Origin: Vicinamibacterales bacterium
GTDB taxonomy: Bacteria > Acidobacteriota > Vicinamibacteria > Vicinamibacterales > CAVVIG01
Direction of reading: 5' to 3'
NCBI GenBank assembly: GCA_035259385.1
Contig: DATFWL010000130.1
Span: 33,319 to 97,318 of the forward strand
DNA length: 64,000 bases
Position 1 is the first letter of the stretch, and every line of letters starts with the position of its first letter. The translations under genes and the position numbers were made by a program. The notes under the pieces are model-generated. The model saw only the letters and a list, made by a program, of their open reading frames with translations. It was not told where the DNA came from and ran no database searches. Positions 3,657-34,534 of this stretch are shown piece by piece.

Positions 3657-5651
3657 ATGCGAGTCGGGATTGCGATCGCGCTCTCGCTGCTGGTGTCGGG
3701 CACGACGGTCCGGCTTCCCGCCGTCGCGCGCGGCGCTCCGGCGCGCCGGCAGCCGGACCGTGATCCGATCGAACGGAGCACGCTGCGGCTGCATTACGTC
3801 GGCAAGGCCATCGGCTACGAGCGTTATTCGATCTCCCCGGACGGCGACGGCGTCGCGCTCTCTTCCGACTTCGACTTCACCGATCGCGGCGGCCGCGTGC
3901 AGCTGAGGGCGACCGTGCGCACGAAGCGCGACTACACGCCGGTGGCCTTCAAGGCGACGGGAAGGAGCTACCGGTTCGTCAACGTCGACTCCGACATCCG
4001 CATCGACGGCGGCGACGCGGTCGTCCGCGCCGATGGCGCCGAGACGCGCGTTCCGATGCCGCCGCCGTTCTTCACCGTGGACGGCTACGCGCCCTTTGCC
4101 GCGCAGATGCTGATGCTGCGCTACTGGAAGGCTCACGGCCAGCCGCGTCAGCTGCGGACGGTGCCAGGACTGCCGGTCAACGAGGTCGTCATCGAGGCGC
4201 GCGGCCGCGACGCGATGCGCGTCGGCGACCGGGACGTGCGTCTCGAGCGCTACGTGATCGACGGCGTCGTCTGGGGGCGCGAGACCATCTGGTTGGACGA
4301 GCAGGGCGCGCTCGCCGCAGCGATCACCAGGGCCGGCGGCCTCGGCTTCGAAGCGGTGCGGGAGGATCTCGAGCCTGCGCTCGCCGGCTTCATCGACAGC
4401 GGGACGCGCGATCGTATTGGCGATCTCGAAGCCATCACCGGTCAGGTGCGGCTGCTCACGACCGGCACCTACGCGATGGTCGGCGCGACGATTGTTGACG
4501 GCACGGGGCGTCCGCCGATCGCCGATGGCGTCGTCGTCGTCCGCGGCGGGAAGATCGCAGACGTCGGTCCGCGCAGCGACGTGAGGATTCCCGCCGATGC
4601 GGCCGCGGTTGACGTGTCGGGCAGGACCGTGATTCCCGGCCTGTGGGACATGCACACGCACGTGACCCAGATCGAGTGGGCGCCGGTGTATCTGGCCGCC
4701 GGCGTGACCACGGTCCGCGACATGGGCAACGAGTTCGCGTTCATCACCGCGCTGCGCGACTCGATCGAATCGCGGCGCTCGCTCGGTCCGCGCCTGCTGC
4801 TCGCTGGTCTCGTCGACGGCGGCGGCCCGAACGCGTTCGGCACAGAGTACGCGGCGACGCCGGACGAAGCCAGGCGTGTCGTCGCGAAGTATCACGACGC
4901 CGGATTTCAGCAGATCAAGATCTACAGCCTGGTAACGCCGCCGATCGTCGAGGCGCTCTCAGCAGAGGCGCATCGGCTGGGGATGACCGTCACTGGCCAC
5001 GTGCCGAATGGGATGACGATCGAACAGGGCGTCACCGCCGGGATGGATCAGATCGCGCACCTGCCGATTCGCGGCGAGGCGGCCTCCGACGAGGTGAAAC
5101 GCACGATTCAGTTCCTGCGCGAGCACGGGACCGTCGTCGATCCGACGCAGTCGTGGAACGAGCTCCTCGGACACGCGGCCGGGACGCCAGTGGCCGCATT
5201 TCAGCCGGGCATCGACAACGTCCCGCCGCCGCTCAATCGTCTGTTCTCGAACGCAGGCACGGCTGGCATCGATGCGGCGACGGCTCGCACACGCCTCGAG
5301 CGTACGCTGCGCATCGTCAAGGCGCTTCATCGCGCGGGCGTGCCGGTCGTCGCCGGTACGGACGAAGGTGTTCCCGGCCACAGCGTACACCGCGAGATCG
5401 AGCTGTATGCGGCAGCCGGCTTCACGCCGATGGAGGCCCTCCAGGCGGCGACGATCGTCTCCGCGCGCGCGATGAAGCTGGACGCCGAGTCCGGCACGAT
5501 CGAGCGCGGCAAGCGCGCTGACTTCGTCGTCCTCGACGCGAACCCGCTCGACTCGATCCGGAACATCCGTCGCGTGCGCTGGACCGTCCGCGACGGCCGC
5601 GTTTACGACGCGAGCGCGCTGTGGAAGAGCGTGCGCTTCGTGCCCCAGTAA
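3657..5651 (+). CDS. amidohydrolase family protein (secreted, metal-dependent hydrolase fold)
   Basis: Signal peptide MRVGIAIALSLLVSGTT…. Has IPGLWDMHTHV (the HxH metal motif), a C-terminal GTDEGVPGH…, and …GKRADFVVLDANPL typical of the family. Confidence 0.85.
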   Translation: MRVGIAIALSLLVSGTTVRLPAVARGAPARRQPDRDPIERSTLRLHYVGKAIGYERYSISPDGDGVALSSDFDFTDRGGRVQLRATVRTKRDYTPVAFKATGRSYRFVNVDSDIRIDGGDAVVRADGAETRVPMPPPFFTVDGYAPFAAQMLMLRYWKAHGQPRQLRTVPGLPVNEVVIEARGRDAMRVGDRDVRLERYVIDGVVWGRETIWLDEQGALAAAITRAGGLGFEAVREDLEPALAGFIDSGTRDRIGDLEAITGQVRLLTTGTYAMVGATIVDGTGRPPIADGVVVVRGGKIADVGPRSDVRIPADAAAVDVSGRTVIPGLWDMHTHVTQIEWAPVYLAAGVTTVRDMGNEFAFITALRDSIESRRSLGPRLLLAGLVDGGGPNAFGTEYAATPDEARRVVAKYHDAGFQQIKIYSLVTPPIVEALSAEAHRLGMTVTGHVPNGMTIEQGVTAGMDQIAHLPIRGEAASDEVKRTIQFLREHGTVVDPTQSWNELLGHAAGTPVAAFQPGIDNVPPPLNRLFSNAGTAGIDAATARTRLERTLRIVKALHRAGVPVVAGTDEGVPGHSVHREIELYAAAGFTPMEALQAATIVSARAMKLDAESGTIERGKRADFVVLDANPLDSIRNIRRVRWTVRDGRVYDASALWKSVRFVPQ

Positions 5652-5680
5652 TTTCGAATTAAGGAAGTAAGAATTCTCAA
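5652..5680. repeat. AT-rich word element (atttcgaattaaggaagtaagaattctcaatt)
   Basis: Same aagaatt/gaattc word family as 13168-13278 and 33007-33106. It fills the entire gap between two convergent stop codons. Confidence 0.75.
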
Positions 5681-7267
5681 TTACGACGTTTTCGAGTACG
5701 TCATCGTCCGCGTCGTCGACTGACCGCCCGACTCGAGGTCGCGGACGACCGTCAGCGTGCGGCCATTGACGCTCAGCATGTCGCGGCCCCAGTTCATGCC
5801 TTGCTTGTAATGCAGGTGCAGCGTCGTGCCGTCCCAGTGGGCGCGTGTCTTGAGCGCCATCACGTCTCCGGGCGGCGTTGACACCGTCTTCCCGTCGATC
5901 GTGTATTTCGCCACCTTGCCGCCGATCTCGACCGACACGCTGTCCGCCGTCTGAGTGATCGCGACGGCTCCCGGCGCCTGCGCGAACAGCGTTTCGGCGT
6001 ACGGGCCGGCGATGCCGCCGCCACCGGCGCCGCGCCCGCGCCCCGCCGCGACCGGCGGCTCCGCGCTGCCGAGCGTCCACGTCCCGCTGAACGTGGCGCC
6101 GCCGCCTGTGCTCGACAGATCGTTCGTCGGCGGCGCGATGCCCGCGGCCGACAGCGTCGCCGCCGCGCGCGGCATCAGCGGCTGCGGCTTGTAGATATGT
6201 GTGGGATCGGCTCCCGGCCGCGGCCGGAACTTCTGCGAGCGGCCGCCGAAGACCTCGGCGGTGTAGAGATTGCCGTCGGTGTCGGCGCCGAACTCGTGCA
6301 CCGCCCAGAAGAATCCCGGCGTCGTGCCATGCGTGCCCCACGCGTACAGCAGATGCCCCTGGAGGTCGTACTTCAGCATCTTGTCGAGCGGTCCGGAGAA
6401 GACCCACAGAAACTGATCGTCGCTGATGCGGATGTTGTACGGCTGCTGGATGTTCGGAAATGCGTCGAGGTAGCTGCCGTTCTCGTCGAAGACCTGGATG
6501 CGGTTGTTGGCGCGATCGGAGACGTAGACCTTGCGGGTGCGATCGATCGTGATCGAGTGCGGTGTGTTGAACTGGCTCGGCCCGGTGCCGCGCGTGCCCC
6601 AGCTCTTGATGAACTTCCCGTCCTTGTCGAACTTCGCCACGCGCGTATTGCCGTAGCCGTCGCTGACGAAGAAAGTGCCATCCGGCAGCCAGGCGATGTC
6701 GGTCGGCCGCTTGAAATGCGTGCCGTCGCTGCCCGCCTCGTCGCGCGTGCCGAGCACCATCAACAGCTTCTTGCCGTCGTTGGTGAACTTGAAGATCTGG
6801 TGGTGGATGTCGTCCACGATCCAGACGTCGTGCTGCGGATCGTACGGGCTCATCAGCACCGAATGCGGACCGCGTCCGTCTTCGAACAGGTAATCCCACT
6901 GCGTCCACGATTCGACCGCCTTCCCCTGGCCGTCGACGACGACGATGCAGTTGCGGAATTCGGGCGTGGGTGTGGTGGCCTGCTCGCCGAACGATCCCCA
7001 GAAGCCGGTGAACCCGGGCGGCGTCGTGGCCGGCAGCTTCAGCTCGCCGCGATTGGCGATGAAGATGCGAGTCGGACTCTCCGCAAAGATGCCCCCGGTC
7101 GAACCCCAGATGTAGCCGGACTTGGCGAACGCCAGCGGCTGCGGCCAGCCGGTCACGACGTCGTAGGGCCCGGTGCGGTCGTCGCCGCCCTTTTCCTGGA
7201 GGAGCGCGCCGGCGGACAGGGCGAGGACGGCTGATGCGGTGAGGAGGGCACTGATCGCTGCGCGCAT
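5681..7267 (-). CDS. NHL repeat-containing six-bladed beta-propeller protein (secreted)
   Basis: NHL-type repeats (…VYVSDRANNRIQVFDENGSYL…, …FFVSDGYGNTRVAKFDKDGKF…). Start chosen at ATG 7265-7267 (MRAAISALLTASAVLALSAGA, a signal peptide), preceded by GGGAGG. Paralog of 47852-48991. Confidence 0.85.
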   Translation of the reverse strand: MRAAISALLTASAVLALSAGALLQEKGGDDRTGPYDVVTGWPQPLAFAKSGYIWGSTGGIFAESPTRIFIANRGELKLPATTPPGFTGFWGSFGEQATTPTPEFRNCIVVVDGQGKAVESWTQWDYLFEDGRGPHSVLMSPYDPQHDVWIVDDIHHQIFKFTNDGKKLLMVLGTRDEAGSDGTHFKRPTDIAWLPDGTFFVSDGYGNTRVAKFDKDGKFIKSWGTRGTGPSQFNTPHSITIDRTRKVYVSDRANNRIQVFDENGSYLDAFPNIQQPYNIRISDDQFLWVFSGPLDKMLKYDLQGHLLYAWGTHGTTPGFFWAVHEFGADTDGNLYTAEVFGGRSQKFRPRPGADPTHIYKPQPLMPRAAATLSAAGIAPPTNDLSSTGGGATFSGTWTLGSAEPPVAAGRGRGAGGGGIAGPYAETLFAQAPGAVAITQTADSVSVEIGGKVAKYTIDGKTVSTPPGDVMALKTRAHWDGTTLHLHYKQGMNWGRDMLSVNGRTLTVVRDLESGGQSTTRTMTYSKTS

Positions 7268-7437: not shown

Positions 7438-10400
7438 ATGGCGATCGAACGGCTACTTCGGCGGGTTTTCGTTGGCGTCTCTCTCGTCTTCCTCCTACCC
7501 AGCGGCGTTCTCGCACAGAGTGCAATCGCAGGCGTCGTAAGAGATACGACTGGTGCCGTCTTGCCTGGCGTCACCGTCGAAGTCGCCAGCCCGGCGCTGA
7601 TCGAGGGGACGCGGTCCGCGATCTCCGATTCACAGGGGCAGTACAAGATTCTCGACCTGCGCCCGGGAACCTACAGCGTGACCTTCACGCTGCCCGGATT
7701 CTCGACCGTGAAGCGCGACGGCGTCGAGCTGCCGGCCAATTTCACCGCGCCGGTGAACGGCGAGCTGAAGGTCGGGTCGCTCGAAGAAACGGTCACCGTC
7801 TCGGGCGCCTCGCCGGTGGTCGACGTGCAGCAGGCGGTCACGCAGCAGGTGCTGCCGCAGGCGCTGCTCGACGCGGTGCCGACCGGCGGACGCAACATCC
7901 AGTCGATCGGCGCGACGCTGGTCGGCGTGACGCAGTCGCAGCCCGACGTTGGCGGCGCGCAGGGGATGCAGCAGACCTATCTCGCCGCGCACGGCAGCGA
8001 TCCGAAAGACAACTACATCATGGTCGACGGGATTCGCCTGAACGGCATCGAAGGCGACGGCGCGATCCAGCAGTACTTCAACGAGGGCATGTTCTCGGAA
8101 ATGAGTTATCAGACGGGCGGAATCTCCGCCGAGTCCTCCGGCGGCGGCGTGCGGCTGAACATGATCCCGAAGGACGGCGGCAACACGCTCAGAGGCGACG
8201 TGTTCTTCTCGGCGACTGGCATCGATCTGCAGGCGAATCCGCTGACGCAGGATCTGATCGATCAGGGGCTGCAGGCCGGCAACGCGCTCGAGAGCATTCA
8301 CGACCTGAACGTCTCGGCGGGCGGGCCGATCGTCAAGAGCCGCCTCTGGTTCTTCGGATCGACGCGCCACTGGGGTGTGAACCAGACGCTGGCCAACTCG
8401 TTTTATCCGGCGGTGCCGTTCACGCCGACGGACACCAGCTTCGTGCCGGATCGAACGAATCAGGCTGTGGACAACAACCTGATCAAGAGTTACATGACGC
8501 GCTTCACCTGGCAGGTGAGCCCGAAGAACAAGCTCGCCTTCTACTTCGACAGGCTGATCAAGTTCCGCGGACACGAGCAGAACAGCGCCGTCGCGGGCGG
8601 CGTCTCGGTGTGGTCCGAGGACACGTTCAGCACGCGGCAGCCGAAGCAGTACTACATGACCGAGGCGAAATGGACGGGTGTGTGGTCGACGCGACTGCTC
8701 TTCGAGGCCGGGATCGGCGTCAACAACGAGTCCTACACGACCGGCGAACTGCAGCCCGGCCTCGAGGACTGTCTCGCCGCCGGCACGTGCAACCCGATAC
8801 CGAAGTTCAACGTCACCGACGGCCAGGAGTGGGGCGCGCCGCCGACGCCGTTCTACGTCCATACGCCAGTGCGCGGCACCGCGATCACGTCGCTCTCCTA
8901 CGTGACCGGATCCCATGCCTTCAAGACCGGTTTCGAGTTGTCGCACGGCAAGAGCGGCCTGCAGCGCCGGTGGCAGAATCCCAACATCAACTTCTACCAG
9001 CGCTATCGAACCACCAACGGCGTCACCGCGCCCGTGCAGGTGACGATCTTCAACACCCCGACCGAGGAGTTCGACAATCTGAACGCCGATCTCGGCATCT
9101 ACGTTCAGGACACCTGGACGCTGAAGAAGCTGACGCTCACGCCGGGAGTGCGCTGGGAGTACTTCAACGCCAGCTATCCGGACGAAGGCGTCTCCAGGGA
9201 GTCGCAGGCGCTGATGCTCGCCGAGGGCTATCAGGAGCGTGTGTTGTTCCCGGGGCAGACGATGCCGACGTTCAAGAACGTCGCGCCCCGATTCGGCGCG
9301 TCGTACGACGTGTTCGGCGACGGCAAGACGGCGATCAAGGCGAGCGTCGCGCGCTACAACTCGGCGTTCTCGACGGTCACCTTCCCGCAGGTCTACAACC
9401 CGATGGTGCTGTCCACCGACACGCGCAACTGGCTGAACCCGGCCGCCACCAACAACGTCTTCATCCCGGGCGTCAGCCAGCTCGGACCGTCCACGAACTC
9501 GTCGTTCGGGCTGATCACGCGCACTCCGGATCCGAACATCTCGCGGCCGTACAACGTCGAGATGACGGTGAGCGGACAGCGCGAGATCCGGCCGGGCATG
9601 TCGGCGAGCTTCGGCTACTTCCATCGGCACTACTACAACCTGCTCTATACGGACAACACCGCGCTCGACGTGCCCGATGCGTTCTCGCCGATCACGATTC
9701 AGAATCCGTGCTACGCGCTGACGGGCGGAGCGAAGCCGTGCGGCGGCAACCAGCCGCAGACGCTGACGATCTACAAGATCAATCCGTCGCTCGTCGGCAA
9801 AGGCGCGCCGGTCATCGACCGGAACTCGCCGAACAACTATCGCGTGTACAACGGCATCGAGGGCTCGTTGATGGCTCGCCTGCACGGCGGCGCGCAGGTG
9901 TTCGGCGGCTTCCTCACCGCCCGGCAGATCTCGAGGCTGTGCGACTCGACCGACGGTACCGGGACGATCGCCTTCGCGCAGGCGTCGAACCCGAACTACA
10001 CGCTCTATTGCGATCAGACGCAGTTCGACATTCCGTTCCGCACGCAGTTCAAGCTGGGCGGCACCTACCCGCTGCCGTACGGCCTGAACGTCAGCGGCAC
10101 GTTCCAGAGTTACCCGGGAACGCGCAACTACGGCTCGGGCGCGACCAACTTCGACTACCTGCAGCAGACCTATCTCGTGCCGACGGCGCTGCTCACGCCG
10201 GGGCAGGCGCAGGAGACAATCAACCTGAACACGCCCGGCAGTCTGTACCTGCAGCGGTGGAACCAGCTCGACTTGCGCTTCGCGAAGAAGTTCAAGCTGC
10301 CGGGCGGGAACGGCTACTGGCAACTCCAGGGCGACGTGTTCAATGCGCTGAACGCGCATCCGCTGCTGGCCGTGACGACCAACTGGGGGACCGCGCTTGG

Positions 10401-10461
10401 AAATGCGACGCAGGCGCTGCAGCCGCGCATCCTGACGCTGGGAGCGCAACTGCACTTCTGA
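7438..10461 (+). CDS. TonB-dependent receptor with N-terminal carboxypeptidase-regulatory-like domain
   Basis: AAGGAGG SD before ATG 7438. Signal peptide, then AGVVRDTTGAVLPGVTVEVASPALIEGTRSAISDSQGQYKILDLRPGTYSVTFTLPGF (CarboxypepD_reg), a long beta-barrel and a C-terminal …LGAQLHF. Confidence 0.9.
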   Translation: MAIERLLRRVFVGVSLVFLLPSGVLAQSAIAGVVRDTTGAVLPGVTVEVASPALIEGTRSAISDSQGQYKILDLRPGTYSVTFTLPGFSTVKRDGVELPANFTAPVNGELKVGSLEETVTVSGASPVVDVQQAVTQQVLPQALLDAVPTGGRNIQSIGATLVGVTQSQPDVGGAQGMQQTYLAAHGSDPKDNYIMVDGIRLNGIEGDGAIQQYFNEGMFSEMSYQTGGISAESSGGGVRLNMIPKDGGNTLRGDVFFSATGIDLQANPLTQDLIDQGLQAGNALESIHDLNVSAGGPIVKSRLWFFGSTRHWGVNQTLANSFYPAVPFTPTDTSFVPDRTNQAVDNNLIKSYMTRFTWQVSPKNKLAFYFDRLIKFRGHEQNSAVAGGVSVWSEDTFSTRQPKQYYMTEAKWTGVWSTRLLFEAGIGVNNESYTTGELQPGLEDCLAAGTCNPIPKFNVTDGQEWGAPPTPFYVHTPVRGTAITSLSYVTGSHAFKTGFELSHGKSGLQRRWQNPNINFYQRYRTTNGVTAPVQVTIFNTPTEEFDNLNADLGIYVQDTWTLKKLTLTPGVRWEYFNASYPDEGVSRESQALMLAEGYQERVLFPGQTMPTFKNVAPRFGASYDVFGDGKTAIKASVARYNSAFSTVTFPQVYNPMVLSTDTRNWLNPAATNNVFIPGVSQLGPSTNSSFGLITRTPDPNISRPYNVEMTVSGQREIRPGMSASFGYFHRHYYNLLYTDNTALDVPDAFSPITIQNPCYALTGGAKPCGGNQPQTLTIYKINPSLVGKGAPVIDRNSPNNYRVYNGIEGSLMARLHGGAQVFGGFLTARQISRLCDSTDGTGTIAFAQASNPNYTLYCDQTQFDIPFRTQFKLGGTYPLPYGLNVSGTFQSYPGTRNYGSGATNFDYLQQTYLVPTALLTPGQAQETINLNTPGSLYLQRWNQLDLRFAKKFKLPGGNGYWQLQGDVFNALNAHPLLAVTTNWGTALGNATQALQPRILTLGAQLHF

Positions 10462-10470
10462 GATCAGAAA

Positions 10471-10638
10471 GGGGCTCGGGGCTGGGGGCTAGCTGTCAGG
10501 GGAGACTGGGACTAGGGGACTGGGGGACTGGAGGACTCCGACTCTAGACGTCGTAGCGCGAAGGCTTCAGCCGAGCGCCCAGCTCGCCCCGAGCCCCCTC
10601 TGAATTCAGCTAGCCCCTAGCCCCCAGTCCCGAGCCCC
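10471..10638. repeat. long composite hairpin: G-rich word arms (ggggctcggggctgggggctagctg / cagctagcccctagcccccagtcccgagcccc) around a GTAGCGCGAAGGCTTCAGCCGAGCG core
   Basis: The arms are imperfect reverse complements. The core matches the REP-like element at 26318-26396. It lies between convergent genes. Confidence 0.85.
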
Positions 10639-13285: not shown

Positions 13286-14275
13286 TCAGTAATCGCAGAC
13301 GTTCCGCCTGATGGGGAGCGTCACGCGCACCGAGGCCGGGCGGGAGAATACCTCGTTCGAGCGGGCGAAGCCGTCGAGAAACCAGTCCATCACGTGCATC
13401 TGCGTCTTGTACTTGCCCAGCGCCGTGCGCTTGGTCCTCGTCTCGGCTGGAGTCAGCGGGAAGCGCAGCCAGCCCGAGACGCCGCCGCGCAGCCCTGGCG
13501 GCGGAGCCAGCCGCGTCTCCTCGTCCTCGAACGGCCACGAGTAGAAATGCACGATGTAGTTCAGCACGTCGGCGGAGAAATCGGGCTGCACCCGCTTCAC
13601 GTCGGTGAAGGCGTCGGCGAGGAAGAACCACGCCGCGCAGTGATCGGCATGCTGATCTTCCTTGCGTGGCACGACGATCATCGTCGGCTTGAAGTCGGCG
13701 ATGATCAGCGCCAGTTCCTGCGAGAGATCCTCGCCGCGATACCTGGTGTCGGGCACGACGATCTCCGACTTCGGCGGCCGATCCTGCTTCGTATACGGAG
13801 ATCGATACGCCGCCCGGCGTTCCGACCAGTAGGTGCGCATCAGTTTCGCGAGGCCGCCGTCGGGGAAGCCGAGGAACGTGTACGACGCCTTGTCGAGCCC
13901 GAGCGCCAGCAGCGCGTTCCGCGCCTCGCGCCGCCGTTGGCGGCCGTAGCCGCGGTAATCGGTCGGGGCGGGCGACTCGACGTGGTCCTCGGTCTTCACG
14001 CCCTCGGGGTAGCCATCGCCGTCGGTGAGGTACACCACGTTGACGCGCCCGCCAGTCTCGTGGACCCGTTCCATCAGGCCGCCTGCGCCGAGCGTCTCGT
14101 CGTCCGGATGGGGCGCGACGACGAGAAGGCGGGTCTGGGGCGGCACCTCGAGCGTCGGCGGTGGCTGATAACGTCGCGCGGCATGTCGCCGGCCACTGGC
14201 GGTCAGGTCCTTCGGCGAGCACAGCAGCCCTACAGCAATCGCCGTAACTGCTGACAGACGCACTATTCCCGTCAT
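13286..14275 (-). CDS. PIG-L family deacetylase (LmbE-like)
   Basis: LLVVAPHPDDETLGAGGLM…VVYLTDGDG… and HADH motifs. There is a 4-nt overlap with the upstream BNR gene. Confidence 0.85.
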   Translation of the reverse strand: MTGIVRLSAVTAIAVGLLCSPKDLTASGRRHAARRYQPPPTLEVPPQTRLLVVAPHPDDETLGAGGLMERVHETGGRVNVVYLTDGDGYPEGVKTEDHVESPAPTDYRGYGRQRRREARNALLALGLDKASYTFLGFPDGGLAKLMRTYWSERRAAYRSPYTKQDRPPKSEIVVPDTRYRGEDLSQELALIIADFKPTMIVVPRKEDQHADHCAAWFFLADAFTDVKRVQPDFSADVLNYIVHFYSWPFEDEETRLAPPPGLRGGVSGWLRFPLTPAETRTKRTALGKYKTQMHVMDWFLDGFARSNEVFSRPASVRVTLPIRRNVCDY

Positions 14276-17244
14276 CTCACGGTAGAGGTGAGCAATCGGC
14301 GTACCCGCGTTTCGAGCGCGGCGACCGCGGTTGTCGCCTGCCGCGTGGGGGCGCGATCTGCACCTTCCACGACGTCGTACGCGGTGGCGAGGTCGGTGTT
14401 CACAGCTTCCAGTGCCTTATCGGATCGACCGGGTGCCGGCTGTTGGGCGCCTTCCGACGGCGCCTGCCGGCCGCTTGCGGCGAACGTTTGATTCATCAAG
14501 TCGGCGAGTTTGGTTGCGAGCGTGAACTGCTGGGTGAGTCCAAGCGCGTTGATTGTGGCACGCGGATCCATTTTCAGGGTCAACGGTTGCGTCAGTGTCG
14601 TCCCGTCAGCGGTCAGTTTCACCGTATACAGCCCTGGCAGCGCGAGCACCCCAAGCGGCTCGAGCGGCGTGTCGCGGTAGATCGCCGAAATCGGGAAGTC
14701 GCGCTGAACGGCGCCTGGCCGAGGGTAGCGCAGGTCCCACACGAACCGATGCATGCCCTTCGATGCCGGCAGCGTCCGCAGGGGACGCGCCCAGTACATC
14801 GGCACGTTGATCGCCCTCTCGTCGTACGGCTCCGGTTTGTCGTCGCTCGAATAACGACGGACGAGTCGCCCGGCTGAAGCCGTCGCGCCGCGACTGTAGA
14901 TTTCGAGCGTCACGGGACCGCGCGCGTCGCTCGCCAGGTAGTAGTCGATCACCGCGCCGTCGGGCGGATTTTGAGCGGCGGGCACTTCCGGCGGCAGCGG
15001 CGTGTCGGTGTTCTGGTTGCGGCGCAGGCGATAGGCGACGGCCGGTTTGAAGAGGATCACCGGACGCGCGGAGGCTTCAGCCGAGCGTCCGATCTGCCGC
15101 AGCGGCGTGATGTTGTCGAGGATCCAGAAACCGCGGCCGTGCGTCGCGACGGCGACATCGTCCCCATGGACGATCAGATCGCGCACCGACGTGTGCGGGA
15201 GGTTCAGGGTGATCGACTGCCAGCTGTCGCCGTCGTCGAACGAGACGTACACGTCACGCTCGGTGCCTGCGAAGAGCAGGCCGCGCGTCGCCGGATCTTC
15301 ACGGACGACGTTGACCGGCGCGGTGTCGGCGAGGCCGCGTGTGATCTTCGTCCACGACTTTCCCCCGTCTCGCGTGCGGAAGACGAGCGGCGTCAGATCG
15401 TCCACGCGGAACCGCGAGACCGAGATGTACGCGGTCGCCTGATCGAAGTGCGACGCGTCGATCTGCGTGACCTTGCTCCATGCGCTCAGCTCGGGCGGCG
15501 TGACGTTGGTCCAGGTTGCGCCGCCGTCCCGCGTCACGTGCACGGCGCCGTCGTCAGAGCCGGTCCAGATCACGTTCACGTTGAGCGGCGAGGGGCCGAT
15601 CGCATAGATCACGCCGCGGTGCTCGGCCTTCCGCGCATCGTCGAGATAGACGCCGAGCGATGGCGGCACGCCCGGATTGGCACGGGACAGGTCTCCGCTG
15701 ATCTTCGTCCAGCTCCGTCCGCCGTTGAGGGTCTTGTAGAGAAACTGGGTCGCGTAGAGCAGGAGGTGCGGATCGGCCTTCGAGAACAGGACCGGTGCCG
15801 TGCGAACGAACCGATCCGCGCCGCCGCGGACGACGATCGGACCGACGTTCTGCACCTCGCCGGTGCGCTCGTCGTAGCGCGTCACCTTGCCTCCGTAGAC
15901 GATGCCGGGGTGCAACGGATCCGGTGCCGCATAGCCGTACTCCTCGAGGCCGACTGGATGCCACTCGCGGAAGGTGATCTCGCCGTAGTCGCTGCGCGAG
16001 GCGACGCCTGCCGATCCGCTTTCCTGCTGCCCGCCGTACAGCCAGTACGGGAAGCGATTGTCGGCGGCGACGTGGAACATCTGTGCCGTCGGCTGGTTGT
16101 ACCACGAACTCCACGTCTCGCCGCCGTTGACGGTGATGGTTGCGCCCTGATCGGCGGCAATCAGGATGATGCGCGGATTGGTCGGGTTGATCCAGATCGT
16201 ATGGTAGTCGTCGCCGCCGGGCGCGCCCTTGATCGCGGTGAACGTCCGTCCGCCGTCCGTCGATCGATAGGTGGACGTGTTGGCCGCATAGACGATATCG
16301 GCGTTCGTGGGATCGACGCGCACGTTCGCGAAGTCGTCGCCGCGGCCCCAGACGCGTGCCTCCGTGTTCACCTGATTCCAGGTCGCGCCCGCGTCATCCG
16401 AGCGATAGAGCCCGGACGTGCGCGCGGTGACCCAGGCGTAGATGCGCTGCGGATTGGCTGGTGCGATGCCGATGCCGATGCGGCTCAACCCGTCGGCGCG
16501 CGTCGGCAGACCGCGCGTCAGCGGCTGCCATGTCGATCCGCCGTCGGTCGACTTGTAGAGACCGCTCGCCGGACCGGCGTAGGCGTTGTCGTATTCCCAC
16601 GGTCCCTGGCGGGCCGCCCAGAGGACCGCGTAGACCGCCTGCGCGTTCGACGGATCGAACACGAGGTCGATCGCCCCGGTGTCGTCGTCGCGGAACAGCA
16701 CCTTCTCGAAGGTTCGTCCGCCGTCGGTCGATCGGAACACGCCGCGTTCGGGATTGGCGCCGTAGGGGTGGCCGAGGGCGGCCACGAACAGGCGATTCGG
16801 GTCGCCCGGATCGACGATGGCCGCGCCAATCTGCCGCGCGTCGCGCAGGCCGAGGTGCTGCCACGTCAGACCGGCGTCGGTCGACTTGTAGATGCCGTCG
16901 CCGACCGAGAGATCGGGACGCTGCAGACCTTCGCCGCTGCCGACGTAGACGATGTTCGGGTCGGAGGGCGCGACGGCAATCGTTCCGATCGACTGTGTCG
17001 GCTGATCGTCGAAGATCGGTGTCCAGGTGGATCCGTAGTCGGTCGTTTTCCACACGCCGCCGTTGTTGACGCCGATATAGAAGACGTTCGGTTGCTGCGC
17101 GACCCCGGCCGCGCCGACAGTCCGCCCGCCGCGAAATGGGCCGACGTGTCGCCACCTGAGGTCGGCGTACACCGACGGGTCGACGCCTTGTGCGGTCGCA
17201 ACGACAGCTGCGGCCGCGAAAACGGCAGTGAGAAATGTGCGCAC
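14272..17244 (-). CDS. sortilin/VPS10-type BNR (Asp-box) repeat protein, secreted
   Basis: 990 aa. Signal peptide. Many Asp-box repeats (S/T-x-D-x-G-x-T/S-W: KTTDYGSTW, KSTDAGLTW, RSTDGGRTF, KSTDGGSTW, RSDDAGATW, TRDGGATW, TRDGGKSW, SFDDGDSW). Confidence 0.9.
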   Translation of the reverse strand: MRTFLTAVFAAAAVVATAQGVDPSVYADLRWRHVGPFRGGRTVGAAGVAQQPNVFYIGVNNGGVWKTTDYGSTWTPIFDDQPTQSIGTIAVAPSDPNIVYVGSGEGLQRPDLSVGDGIYKSTDAGLTWQHLGLRDARQIGAAIVDPGDPNRLFVAALGHPYGANPERGVFRSTDGGRTFEKVLFRDDDTGAIDLVFDPSNAQAVYAVLWAARQGPWEYDNAYAGPASGLYKSTDGGSTWQPLTRGLPTRADGLSRIGIGIAPANPQRIYAWVTARTSGLYRSDDAGATWNQVNTEARVWGRGDDFANVRVDPTNADIVYAANTSTYRSTDGGRTFTAIKGAPGGDDYHTIWINPTNPRIILIAADQGATITVNGGETWSSWYNQPTAQMFHVAADNRFPYWLYGGQQESGSAGVASRSDYGEITFREWHPVGLEEYGYAAPDPLHPGIVYGGKVTRYDERTGEVQNVGPIVVRGGADRFVRTAPVLFSKADPHLLLYATQFLYKTLNGGRSWTKISGDLSRANPGVPPSLGVYLDDARKAEHRGVIYAIGPSPLNVNVIWTGSDDGAVHVTRDGGATWTNVTPPELSAWSKVTQIDASHFDQATAYISVSRFRVDDLTPLVFRTRDGGKSWTKITRGLADTAPVNVVREDPATRGLLFAGTERDVYVSFDDGDSWQSITLNLPHTSVRDLIVHGDDVAVATHGRGFWILDNITPLRQIGRSAEASARPVILFKPAVAYRLRRNQNTDTPLPPEVPAAQNPPDGAVIDYYLASDARGPVTLEIYSRGATASAGRLVRRYSSDDKPEPYDERAINVPMYWARPLRTLPASKGMHRFVWDLRYPRPGAVQRDFPISAIYRDTPLEPLGVLALPGLYTVKLTADGTTLTQPLTLKMDPRATINALGLTQQFTLATKLADLMNQTFAASGRQAPSEGAQQPAPGRSDKALEAVNTDLATAYDVVEGADRAPTRQATTAVAALETRVRRLLTSTVR

Positions 17245-17345: not shown

Positions 17346-17374
17346 GTGTTATCGTTTTCGGCCAGAGGAGGCTT

Positions 17375-17932
17375 ATGAGGAAGGTGCTGCGCCTGCTGCC
17401 GCTCGCCATCGTCGCGTGCGGGCTCGTCGCCGGCCCGGCTGCCGCCCAGACCTCGACCGAACTCAAGGTCGGTGATCAGGCGCCGGACTTCACCCTTCAG
17501 GCCACTGACGGCAAGACCTACACCTTGAGCAGTCTCAAGGGCAAATGGGTCGTGCTGGCGTGGTTCCCGAAGGCGTTCACGGCCGGTTGAACGGCCGAAT
17601 GCAACTCGCTCCGTGAGAGCGGGGGACTGATTCGGAAGTTCGACGCGGCGTACTTCATGATCAGCGTCGACACCCTGGCCGACAACAAGGCGTTCGCCGA
17701 GAAAGAGCACGCCGACTTCCCGATGCTCGCGAACCCGGACAAGAAGGTGGCCTTTGCGTACGGCGTGATTCCCGCCGACGCGTCGCCGGAGCGCCAGTTC
17801 GCGCGTCGTTACACCTTCTACATCGATCCGACCGGCAAGATCGCGGACATCGACAAGGCGGTGAAGCCGGCCACATCCGGCCAGGACATCGTCACGCACC
17901 TGGAAGCGTTGAAGGTTCCGGAAAAGAAGTAG
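17375..17932 (+). CDS. peroxiredoxin (BCP/PrxQ-like, AhpC/TSA family), secreted; probable selenoprotein with UGA-encoded Sec at the peroxidatic position
   Basis: Track ORFs 17375-17590 and 17657-17932 are in the same frame, separated by a single TGA (17588-17590). Read-through gives …WFPKAFTAG[U]TAECNSL…, which is PxxxTxx[C] with TGA at the catalytic Cys. The downstream part (…ISVDTLADNKAFAEKEHADFPMLANPD…YTFYIDPTGKI…) is typical Prx. A SECIS-like hairpin follows. Confidence 0.7.
17595..17635 (+). promoter_or_regulatory. putative bacterial SECIS stem-loop
   Basis: Starts 5 nt after the UGA. Lower stem CCGAAU/AUUCGG, internal loop, 7-bp upper stem CUCGCUC/GAGCGGG (one G-U pair), and a 5-nt apical loop CGUGA lying 22-26 nt after the UGA. 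Confidence 0.55.
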
Positions 17933-33106: not shown

Positions 33107-34534
33107 TCTCCGTTCCGGCACTCCCGGCATCAGCTCCTCCAGCGCGCGCTTCAATGCCTCCATCCCGCGCCGATCGCCTCGATAATGGCCCATGCGCACG
33201 ACGACCAGATCGTGCGTCGGATCGATGATCGTGCGCTGTCCGCCGGCACCGTTGGCGAAGTATGCCGACTTCGGGAGCGGCCATGCGCCGTCCCCGTTCA
33301 CCCAGAACAAGCCGCCGTACACCGGCTGCTTCCAGGCAGGCGCCGGCGTGCTCACGAACGTCGCCCACCCTTCTGGCAGCAGGCGCTGGCCCTCCCAGAT
33401 GCCGTCCTGCAGATAGAGCTGTCCGATGCGCGCCCAGTTGCGCGCGGTGCCGTAGTCGTAGCCGGTGAGCAGGAAGTTGCCGTACGGATCGGTCTCGAGC
33501 ACCTGACGGCGGATCCCGATGCGATCGAACAGCGCGCGCTGCGGCCACGTCAGGTACTCCTCGCCGCGCCTGGTGACCGCCTGCTTCACGAGCCAGCCGA
33601 TCATCAGCGGATCGGAGTTGCGGTAGCGCCCTTCCGTATTTGGCGGGAACTGCAGCGGGCGCGTCATCGAATGATCGAACGCGTCGATCGCCCCGGTGTA
33701 GATCAGCGTGTGATCGGGGTAGCCCTTGTCGACGCTGTAGTCGGGATCCTGGCCGGCGATGAACCGCAGGCCGCTGCTCATGTGGAGCAGGTCGGCGATC
33801 CGGATCGCTCCGCGCGGATCGCCCGGCTTCCGCCACTCCGGGACCGGCACCGGATCGTCGACCTTGTAAACGCCGTCCTTCACGAGCAGCGCGAACAGTG
33901 TCGCGGTCAGGCTCTTGCCCATCGACCAGCTTTCGAGCTGCGTGTCCTTCGTGATGCCGGGCATGTAGCGCTCGCCGACGATCTGACCCTTGTGGACGAT
34001 CACGACCGCCGCCGTGAGCGCCTCGGGATCGGCGAACGCGAGATCGAGCGCCTTGTCGACGCGCGCGCGATCCATGCCGGTTGGCGCGGCATGCGTCGGC
34101 GGCGCGTCGCCCATCGGCCACGGCTGTGACGCCGCGTCGGGCAGGCGCGTCTTCACCGCGACCGGCGTGAAGGAGATGCCGTCGTGCCCCTCGGGATGGA
34201 TGATGCAGCCCTGATCGCCGTAGAACTTCGCGATGCGCGCGATCGAACCGTGCGTCATCCGCACCAGCTTCTGTGCGCGATCGACCGTGTAGCGGACGCC
34301 GGCGCGATGCTCGTCGGGGAAGAGAAAGTAGCCGCTGTTCGTGAAGGCTTCCGCCGGATCGCGCTCGGAGACGAACACCGCGGAGCACAGCACCTTGGCG
34401 TAACCGGCAAGGCCGAGGCTGAGCGGCGTGATCCCTTCCGGCGCAAAGGCCGCCGGCCGCCGCGGCGCGGCCTGCCGCGCGACTGCCGACGCCGTGAACG
34501 CGACAACGAGCAACAGCAGCGTTAGTTTGCGCAT
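33101..34534 (-). CDS. serine hydrolase, beta-lactamase/transpeptidase-like family
   Basis: Signal peptide MRKLTLLLLVVAFTASAVA. SxxK motif in ESWSMGKSLTATLFALLV. The length and other blocks fit class C / esterase EstB-like proteins. Confidence 0.85.
   Translation of the reverse strand: MRKLTLLLLVVAFTASAVARQAAPRRPAAFAPEGITPLSLGLAGYAKVLCSAVFVSERDPAEAFTNSGYFLFPDEHRAGVRYTVDRAQKLVRMTHGSIARIAKFYGDQGCIIHPEGHDGISFTPVAVKTRLPDAASQPWPMGDAPPTHAAPTGMDRARVDKALDLAFADPEALTAAVVIVHKGQIVGERYMPGITKDTQLESWSMGKSLTATLFALLVKDGVYKVDDPVPVPEWRKPGDPRGAIRIADLLHMSSGLRFIAGQDPDYSVDKGYPDHTLIYTGAIDAFDHSMTRPLQFPPNTEGRYRNSDPLMIGWLVKQAVTRRGEEYLTWPQRALFDRIGIRRQVLETDPYGNFLLTGYDYGTARNWARIGQLYLQDGIWEGQRLLPEGWATFVSTPAPAWKQPVYGGLFWVNGDGAWPLPKSAYFANGAGGQRTIIDPTHDLVVVRMGHYRGDRRGMEALKRALEELMPGVPERRN

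Follow-up and report, generated by a model that had tools for sequence, protein, structure and literature searches.

We examined a 64-kb window (64,000 nt; positions 33,319–97,318 of contig DATFWL010000130.1, assembly GCA_035259385.1) from a Vicinamibacterales bacterium and found that it very probably encodes a selenoprotein. The gene in question occupies positions 17375–17932 of the window on the forward strand. We interpret it as a single coding sequence for a 185-residue peroxiredoxin whose peroxidatic cysteine is replaced by selenocysteine (Sec), inserted at an in-frame UGA under the direction of a selenocysteine insertion sequence (SECIS), and whose product is probably exported. The UGA and its downstream hairpin are conserved and occur together, the sequence 3′ of the UGA is under purifying selection, and the lineage possesses the machinery for Sec incorporation.

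The gene is easily overlooked. Positions 17375–17590 form a 71-codon open reading frame (ORF) closed by a TGA at 17588–17590, and a 91-aa ORF lies in the same frame at 17657–17932, with no stop in the 22 intervening codons. The first-pass annotation of this DNA had described the two ORFs as parted by a single TGA, which holds, and had expected gene callers to report a pseudogene or two fragments; a near-identical contig in an ENA assembly is indeed annotated with ORFs of 71 and 91 aa. Reading through the TGA yields a protein of 185 codons followed by a TAG stop, with full-length homologues at 52–95 % identity. A Shine–Dalgarno-like AGGAGG (17366–17371, forward strand) sits 3 nt 5′ of the ATG and may serve as the ribosome binding site. 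The read-through protein matched the AhpC/TSA domain PF00578 across the UGA (E=1.1e-32, 113 bits against a cut-off of 26, profile positions 1–123 of 124) as well as the Redoxin domain (1.1e-20). The TGA falls in the context W-F-P65-K-A-F-T69-A-G-[TGA]-T-A-E-C76, which puts it on the peroxidatic residue of the motif PxxxTxxC (P65 to U72, 17567–17590), in agreement with the earlier placement of the TGA on the catalytic residue. Cys-type homologues read WFPKAFTxG-C-TxEC where the window protein reads FTAG-U-TAEC, and Cys occupied the U72 column in 109 of 116 top database matches with a recognizable motif and in 67 distinct Cys-type loci. P65 and T69 were invariant or nearly so in alignments A1 and A2, in which the U72 column is Cys in the Cys forms. 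Cys76 (17600–17602), the cysteine that had been noted four residues past the UGA, is nearly invariant in Sec and Cys forms alike and is the probable resolving cysteine. The column of Arg145 (17807–17809) was invariant in alignment A1; this residue presumably corresponds to the conserved active-site Arg of peroxiredoxins.

Conservation of the UGA was assessed by a search of 5.8 billion predicted proteins, which returned full-length relatives at 59–79 % identity, and by a scan in which each GTDB species was represented by a single genome, which gave 80 loci, nearly all from metagenome-assembled genomes (MAGs) of Vicinamibacterales or Acidobacteriota. The codon was TGA in 76 of these 80 species-representative loci. 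Within the set L001–L086 there were 83 TGA loci versus five copies with TGY, and protein identity to the window ranged from 52 to 95 %. The closest relative, L007 (Vicinamibacterales bacterium SMAG_U9522), shared approximately 84 % DNA identity with the window, placing the source organism within this order. A contig of 1.1 kb, assembled from an unrelated ENA metagenome and representing the same species, was 99.8 % identical to the window, differing by two substitutions in 882 nt and retaining the TGA. Further disabling mutations in other strains, which the first-pass annotation had named as the mark of a simple pseudogene, were not seen in these sequences; the reading frame was intact in every orthologue. 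The ratio of non-synonymous to synonymous substitution rates (dN/dS) 3′ of the UGA was 0.09–0.2 between the window and close orthologues, and 0.10 against L007, so the stretch beyond the UGA is evidently translated.

We then considered the RNA element downstream of the UGA using alignment A3, a gap-free alignment of 81 distinct sequences covering the TGA with 9 nt of 5′ and 60 nt of 3′ flank. A 41-nt hairpin at 17595–17635 (CCGAAU/AUUCGG plus CUCGCUC/GAGCGGG, with the loop CGUGA at +22 to +26) had been proposed from the window sequence, and it is the minimum free energy (MFE) fold, at −24.6 kcal/mol over 60 nt. Its upper part was conserved and its lower part was not. The 7-bp upper stem (columns 27–33 with 39–45, equivalent to 17605–17611/17617–17623) formed in 94.5 % of cells across the 81 sequences and, with the pentaloop at 17612–17616, constitutes the SECIS core at 17605–17623, whilst only 68.7 % of cells paired in the lower stem (17595–17600/17630–17635). 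We therefore dropped the lower stem as a defining part of the element and regard the extended hairpin as optional and lineage-restricted. Pair 27–45 of the upper stem covaried, with CG in 40 sequences, GC in 21 and AU in seven; both of these columns are third codon positions, and 30 sequences carried double compensatory changes. Pair 30–42 showed one change from G-C to A-U. The block C-U-C-C-G-U-G-N-G-A-G was invariant or nearly so, to the extent that nucleotides were better conserved than the amino acids they encode, and it includes the Arg codon CGU, which is rare in this 68 % GC genome. The fifth loop base is free to vary, and the residue encoded there accordingly alternates between E, A, G and V. 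Loop base G35 was invariant and U36 was kept in at least 90 % of the 81 sequences.

These properties were compared with the published description of bacterial SECIS (bSECIS) elements (PMC13188914, Fig. 2A), which specifies a loop of 3–9 nt, an upper stem of 4–16 bp, a spacing of 16–37 nt from the UGA to the loop, a G in the first two loop positions that is usually followed by G or U, and an MFE of −7.5 kcal/mol or lower. The window element has a loop of 5 nt (C-G-U-G-A, with G then U at loop positions 2–3), a stem of 7 bp, a spacing of 21 nt from the UGA to the apical loop, and an MFE of −9.2 kcal/mol for its 19-nt core; the loop spacing, which the first-pass annotation had described as fitting bacterial SECIS elements, thus lies within the published range. 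We take the comparative evidence, namely the 83 TGA orthologues, the stem covariation and the invariant loop, to be decisive for the predicted hairpin, and conclude from it that the hairpin is a putative bacterial SECIS. The original suggestion of a probable selenoprotein is supported by the TGA orthologues, the SECIS covariation and the purifying selection taken together.

If the hairpin serves Sec insertion it should follow the TGA codon rather than the protein family, and this was the pattern observed. A metagenome scan with a profile of the Cys clade added 80 more loci. The CCGUG loop motif was present in 81 of 82 distinct TGA sequences versus one of 67 distinct Cys sequences, and at least six of the seven stem pairs could form in 72 of the TGA sequences versus nine of the Cys sequences. 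Mean local MFE was −10.45 kcal/mol for TGA forms versus −7.5 kcal/mol for Cys forms. The Cys/Sec pairing at this column, with a hairpin confined to TGA-bearing genes, that had been put forward as a check on the selenoprotein proposal was thereby borne out. The sole Cys form with the loop motif was L006. This gene and L070 (codons at 325–327 and 846–848, respectively) are Cys genes nested within the TGA clade, their nearest neighbours all being TGA forms at 77–83 % identity, and in both the Cys codon is TGT, a single substitution away from TGA, whereas Cys-type copies overall comprised 66 with TGC and five with TGT. The hairpin is gone in L070 and kept in L006, although the L006 contig has a coverage of 1.56x and a sequencing error is possible. 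Both genes look like Sec-to-Cys reversions on the basis of their codons and placement.

Sec and Cys forms also occur side by side. In L056 a Cys-type and a Sec-type peroxiredoxin gene are arranged in tandem (9291–9836 and 10001–10471), and in L128 the codons of the tandem paralogues are at 247 (TGA) and 850 (TGT), the order of the two types differing between loci. This arrangement suggests duplication followed by Cys/Sec divergence, with non-redundant roles for the two copies. A further record, P0055, derived from a 588-bp ENA contig, links the C-terminal portion of the peroxiredoxin, which starts 3′ of the TGA, with an N-terminal portion ending once more at …FTAG. Either two Sec-peroxiredoxin genes in tandem were translated through the boundary between them, or the repeated ELKVGD sequence gave rise to an assembly artefact.

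Genes for Sec incorporation were found next to the orthologue in some relatives. In L057, ARAGORN identified a tRNA-Sec (anticodon UCA, minus strand) 6 kb upstream of the peroxiredoxin gene, which was confirmed by Rfam model RF01852 (74.2 bits against a cut-off of 47). Between the two lie selA (TIGR00474, 2.7e-97), selB (TIGR00475) and selD (TIGR00476, 5e-107). The order selA-selB-selD-prx recurred in L045, and selB-selD-prx was seen in L050, whose contig begins within selB; the islands span 4150–10873 in L057, 5370–10760 in L045 and 1–4062 in L050. In all three, selD itself contains a UGA (…AAAG-U-AAK…), and immediately beyond the peroxiredoxin gene, on the opposite strand and in convergent orientation, is a SelW-like/Rdx gene of 75 residues whose product has a CxxU motif (PF10262, 1.4e-9). 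The SECIS elements of prx, selD and the SelW-like gene in these loci have the CGUGN pentaloop in common on unrelated stems: CUCGCUC/GAGCGGG at 21 nt for prx, CGCCGCC/GGCGGCG (7 bp) at 21 nt for the SelW-like gene, and (CU)GGCGCA/UGCGCC(AG) at 32 nt for selD. This sharing provides independent support for the 7-bp register, and suggests that the CGUGN loop may be what SelB recognizes in this lineage. Rfam matched none of the SECIS hairpins of L057, the tRNA-Sec being its sole match there, and an Rfam scan of the window gave no match.

Two features of the relatives' sequences deserve separate mention. The selA and selB genes of L057 (4388–7754) look disrupted: a single ORF at 5032–6438 runs from C-terminal selA sequence into N-terminal selB sequence, and the remainder of each gene is in other frames, reflecting either frameshift errors in a long-read MAG or real lesions. 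In addition, orthologues at 58–69 % identity with the same TGA and SECIS were found in four MAGs (L018, L045, L049 and L084) whose record titles name Betaproteobacteria, Acidimicrobiia, Bifidobacteriaceae and Chloroflexi. These could be due to mis-binning or horizontal transfer.

Several results weigh against a Sec-decoded gene of the kind we propose. Folding of the single window sequence only modestly exceeded shuffled controls, with z-scores of −1.8 to −2.8 depending on the stretch folded. No sel genes were detected in the 64-kb window by tblastn with SelA, SelB and SelD of L057, and ARAGORN found no tRNA there, hence no tRNA-Sec. Neighbourhood clustering over 78 loci, among which synteny was variable, revealed no conserved redox partner. 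Finally, the RNAalifold consensus for the 81 sequences was a 4-bp register (pairs 33–44, 34–43, 35–42 and 36–41) with a GNGA loop, which means that the exact pairing is not settled by the peroxiredoxin alignment alone.

The last of these points raises an alternative structure, in which the SECIS would be a minimal CCGU/GCGG hairpin with a GNRA-type tetraloop instead of a 7-bp stem with CGUGN. The variable loop base would then fall at the N of GNRA, as the consensus fold has it. Its four pairs show no covariation, however, whereas the 7-bp register accounts for the compensatory changes at 27–45 and 30–42, and the selD and SelW-like elements share only the CGUGN loop with prx, on quite different stems of 7–8 bp. 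We prefer the 7-bp register because of these compensatory changes and the loop common to the other genes, and consider the 4-bp alternative unlikely.

The lack of sel genes and tRNA-Sec in the window, where the linkage seen in L045, L050 and L057 is missing, together with the apparent Sec-to-Cys reversions in L006 and L070, could also be explained if this is a genuine selenoprotein gene of the lineage that has fallen silent in the window organism after loss of the Sec machinery. Such a relic would have to be very recent and undecayed. No damage is visible in the ORF, the SECIS or the active-site motif, and the low dN/dS against L007 and the near-identical second strain also speak against silencing. 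Moreover, most loci carrying the Sec-peroxiredoxin gene likewise lack linked sel genes, and because of this their absence from the window is uninformative. We regard a silent relic as very unlikely, and a gene decoded in its host as much the better account.

It is harder still to credit that a nonsense mutation from TGC to TGA inactivated an ordinary Cys-peroxiredoxin. The predominance of Cys at this column in the wider family and the splitting of the gene by gene callers are what a pseudogene would produce, but 83 orthologues, some with as little as 52 % identity, keep the TGA, the reading frame is nowhere broken, dN/dS beyond the TGA is 0.09–0.2, and a hairpin conserved at the nucleotide level accompanies the TGA.

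Scarcely more tenable is the notion that one of the standard amino acids is inserted at the UGA, whether Trp or Gly under an alternative code or Cys or Trp through SECIS-independent near-cognate read-through, since the Trp shown here in seven public JGI protein records is TGA in the DNA fetched, TGA is the commonest ordinary stop of the window's genes, peroxidase chemistry would be lost with Trp or Gly as the peroxidatic residue, and the conserved SECIS and the sel genes adjacent in relatives point to Sec. Of the 33 long ORFs in the window, 22 terminate in TGA; the organism therefore uses the standard genetic code, and a code-4/25 reading was ruled out. The Trp-bearing records (P0001, P0003, P0004, P0005, P0008, P0009 and P0010) are seven of the ten closest protein matches. 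DNA for five such records has TGA at the homologous codon (L001, 343–345; L002, 963–965; L003, 1182–1184; L004, 670–672; L005, 672–674). Evidently, JGI gene calling applied a TGA=Trp code to these short contigs and mistranslated a selenoprotein.

Having favoured a Sec-decoded peroxiredoxin, we compared it with known systems. Sec-peroxiredoxins with the motif PxxxTxxU are an established, experimentally validated family of bacterial selenoproteins (PMC13188914, PMC1794560, PMC2398784), of which PrxU of Eubacterium acidaminophilum is an example (Sohling et al. 2001, as cited in PMC13188914). Twelve such genes were reported in a 2006 survey (PMC1794560) and 253 sequences in the Global Ocean Sampling (GOS) survey (PMC2398784). 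Like that family, the window gene combines an AhpC/TSA fold, Sec at PxxxTxxU, abundant Cys homologues and a bSECIS immediately after the UGA. Adjoining Prx and SelW selenoprotein genes were also seen earlier in ten marine metagenome reads of the GOS survey (PMC2398784), and related loci here resemble them in having a SelW-like selenoprotein gene beside the peroxiredoxin. The window protein nevertheless scored just 59.7 bits against the PrxU equivalog model NF040737, which has a cut-off of 270, and differs from described Sec-peroxiredoxins in its predicted N-terminal signal peptide, its U-x3-C arrangement and its occurrence in a large clade of Vicinamibacterales/Acidobacteriota from aerobic soil. 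Judged from its sequence, the gene displays every testable defining feature of the Sec-peroxiredoxin family, known for more than 20 years, and belongs to a large, apparently uncatalogued clade of it. No paper on selenoproteins of Vicinamibacterales was found in the literature searched.

The first-pass annotation had assigned the 185-aa product to the BCP/PrxQ type, and this assignment stands in part. The read-through length and the AhpC/TSA domain agree with it, the best solved-structure matches were the Sulfolobus Bcp1 structures 2YWN/4G2E (E=8e-20), and the best NCBIfam matches were also to BCP/PrxQ models; like these proteins it is a small peroxiredoxin whose second Cys shares a helix with the peroxidatic residue. 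Scores fell below the NCBIfam cut-offs, however (NF006960, the model for Escherichia coli BCP, 79.4 versus 140 bits; NF053650, 65.1 versus 260 bits), and unlike 2-Cys BCP/PrxQ (CxxxxC) the second Cys is at +4 (U-T-A-E-C) rather than +5, the +5 Cys of 2YWN facing N77. An N-terminal extension of 29 residues and Sec in place of Cys further distinguish it from BCP. By these cut-offs we class the predicted protein as BCP-like only, and not as a PrxU, BCP or PrxQ equivalog. As regards the RNA, the bSECISearch model of Zhang and Gladyshev, as summarized in PMC13188914 (Fig. 2A), takes Escherichia coli fdhF as its prototype. The window element resembles this consensus in its location within the coding sequence right after the UGA, its small apical loop and its stable upper stem, and departs from it in an invariant, lineage-specific pentaloop (C-G-U-G-N) and in having a bulged base in just a subset of orthologues (e.g. 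L004, L057).

The N-terminus of the window protein, judged by eye, reads MRK / VLRLLPLAIVACGLVAG / PAAA|Q, suggestive of a basic n-region, a hydrophobic h-region and an AxA motif, and residues 1–24 (17375–17446) are a predicted Sec-type signal peptide. Residues 1–29 extend beyond the N-termini of the solved cytoplasmic BCP structures, and almost every aligned full-length homologue, whether of Sec or Cys form, has a similar hydrophobic N-terminus. The protein probably leaves the cytoplasm for the periplasm or cell envelope. A lipobox-like I-V-A-C occurs within the predicted signal peptide at residues 12–15 (17408–17419). Lipidation is unlikely as a family trait, because this Cys is not kept in the closest orthologues (P0001, P0002 and P0003).

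Neighbouring genes in the window encode a Sortilin/BNR protein, a protein of no recognized family and an SPFH protein. The first of these (14272–17244, minus strand) is the divergent upstream neighbour, a 990-aa Sortilin/Vps10 and BNR/Asp-box repeat protein with a signal-peptide-like hydrophobic N-terminus; it is syntenic with the peroxiredoxin in approximately seven of 78 loci and is probably functionally unrelated to it. Promoter and terminator scans gave nothing above chance. Screens of the window for further selenoprotein genes, one based on GC content at third codon positions (GC3) and one on CGUGN hairpins, returned just non-coding-looking frames.

Taken with the known bacterial mechanism, these data lead us to the following model, in which we infer SelB binding, export, the role of Cys76 and the use of a reductant. 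The mRNA hairpin 21 nt past the UGA would act as a bacterial SECIS, its loop being bound by SelB carrying GTP and Sec-tRNA(Sec), which would deliver selenocysteine to the UGA, and translation would then run on to the TAG at 17930. The N-terminal Sec-type signal peptide would direct export, with the periplasm or the cell envelope as the probable destination. At that site U72, its position set by P65, T69 and R145, would act on peroxides, reducing them and being converted to a selenenic acid, which Cys76 may resolve as a selenenylsulfide, to be recycled by a thiol-disulfide reductant.

The value of this result is chiefly practical, for annotation; it holds little conceptual surprise and leaves the understanding of Sec decoding and peroxiredoxin chemistry unchanged. 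With correct annotation, at least 76 species-level genomes regain a predicted functional antioxidant enzyme, and the gene adds a large clade of soil Acidobacteriota to the known range of Sec-peroxiredoxins. The lineage-specific SECIS, with its 7-bp stem, CGUGN loop and 21-nt spacing, could be used to find more selenoproteins in these genomes. The predicted signal peptide also suggests an exported selenoenzyme in organisms usually thought of as aerobic. A bolder proposal, to which we give somewhat less than an even chance, is that signal-peptide-bearing U-x3-C peroxiredoxins form an uncatalogued subfamily, with the window gene as its founding example, and are the signature selenoprotein of Vicinamibacterales, a dominant order of aerobic soil Acidobacteriota. 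If so, SelB in this lineage would recognize the invariant CGUGN pentaloop of prx, selD and selW, and peroxide defence at the cell envelope in Vicinamibacterales would depend on soil selenium.

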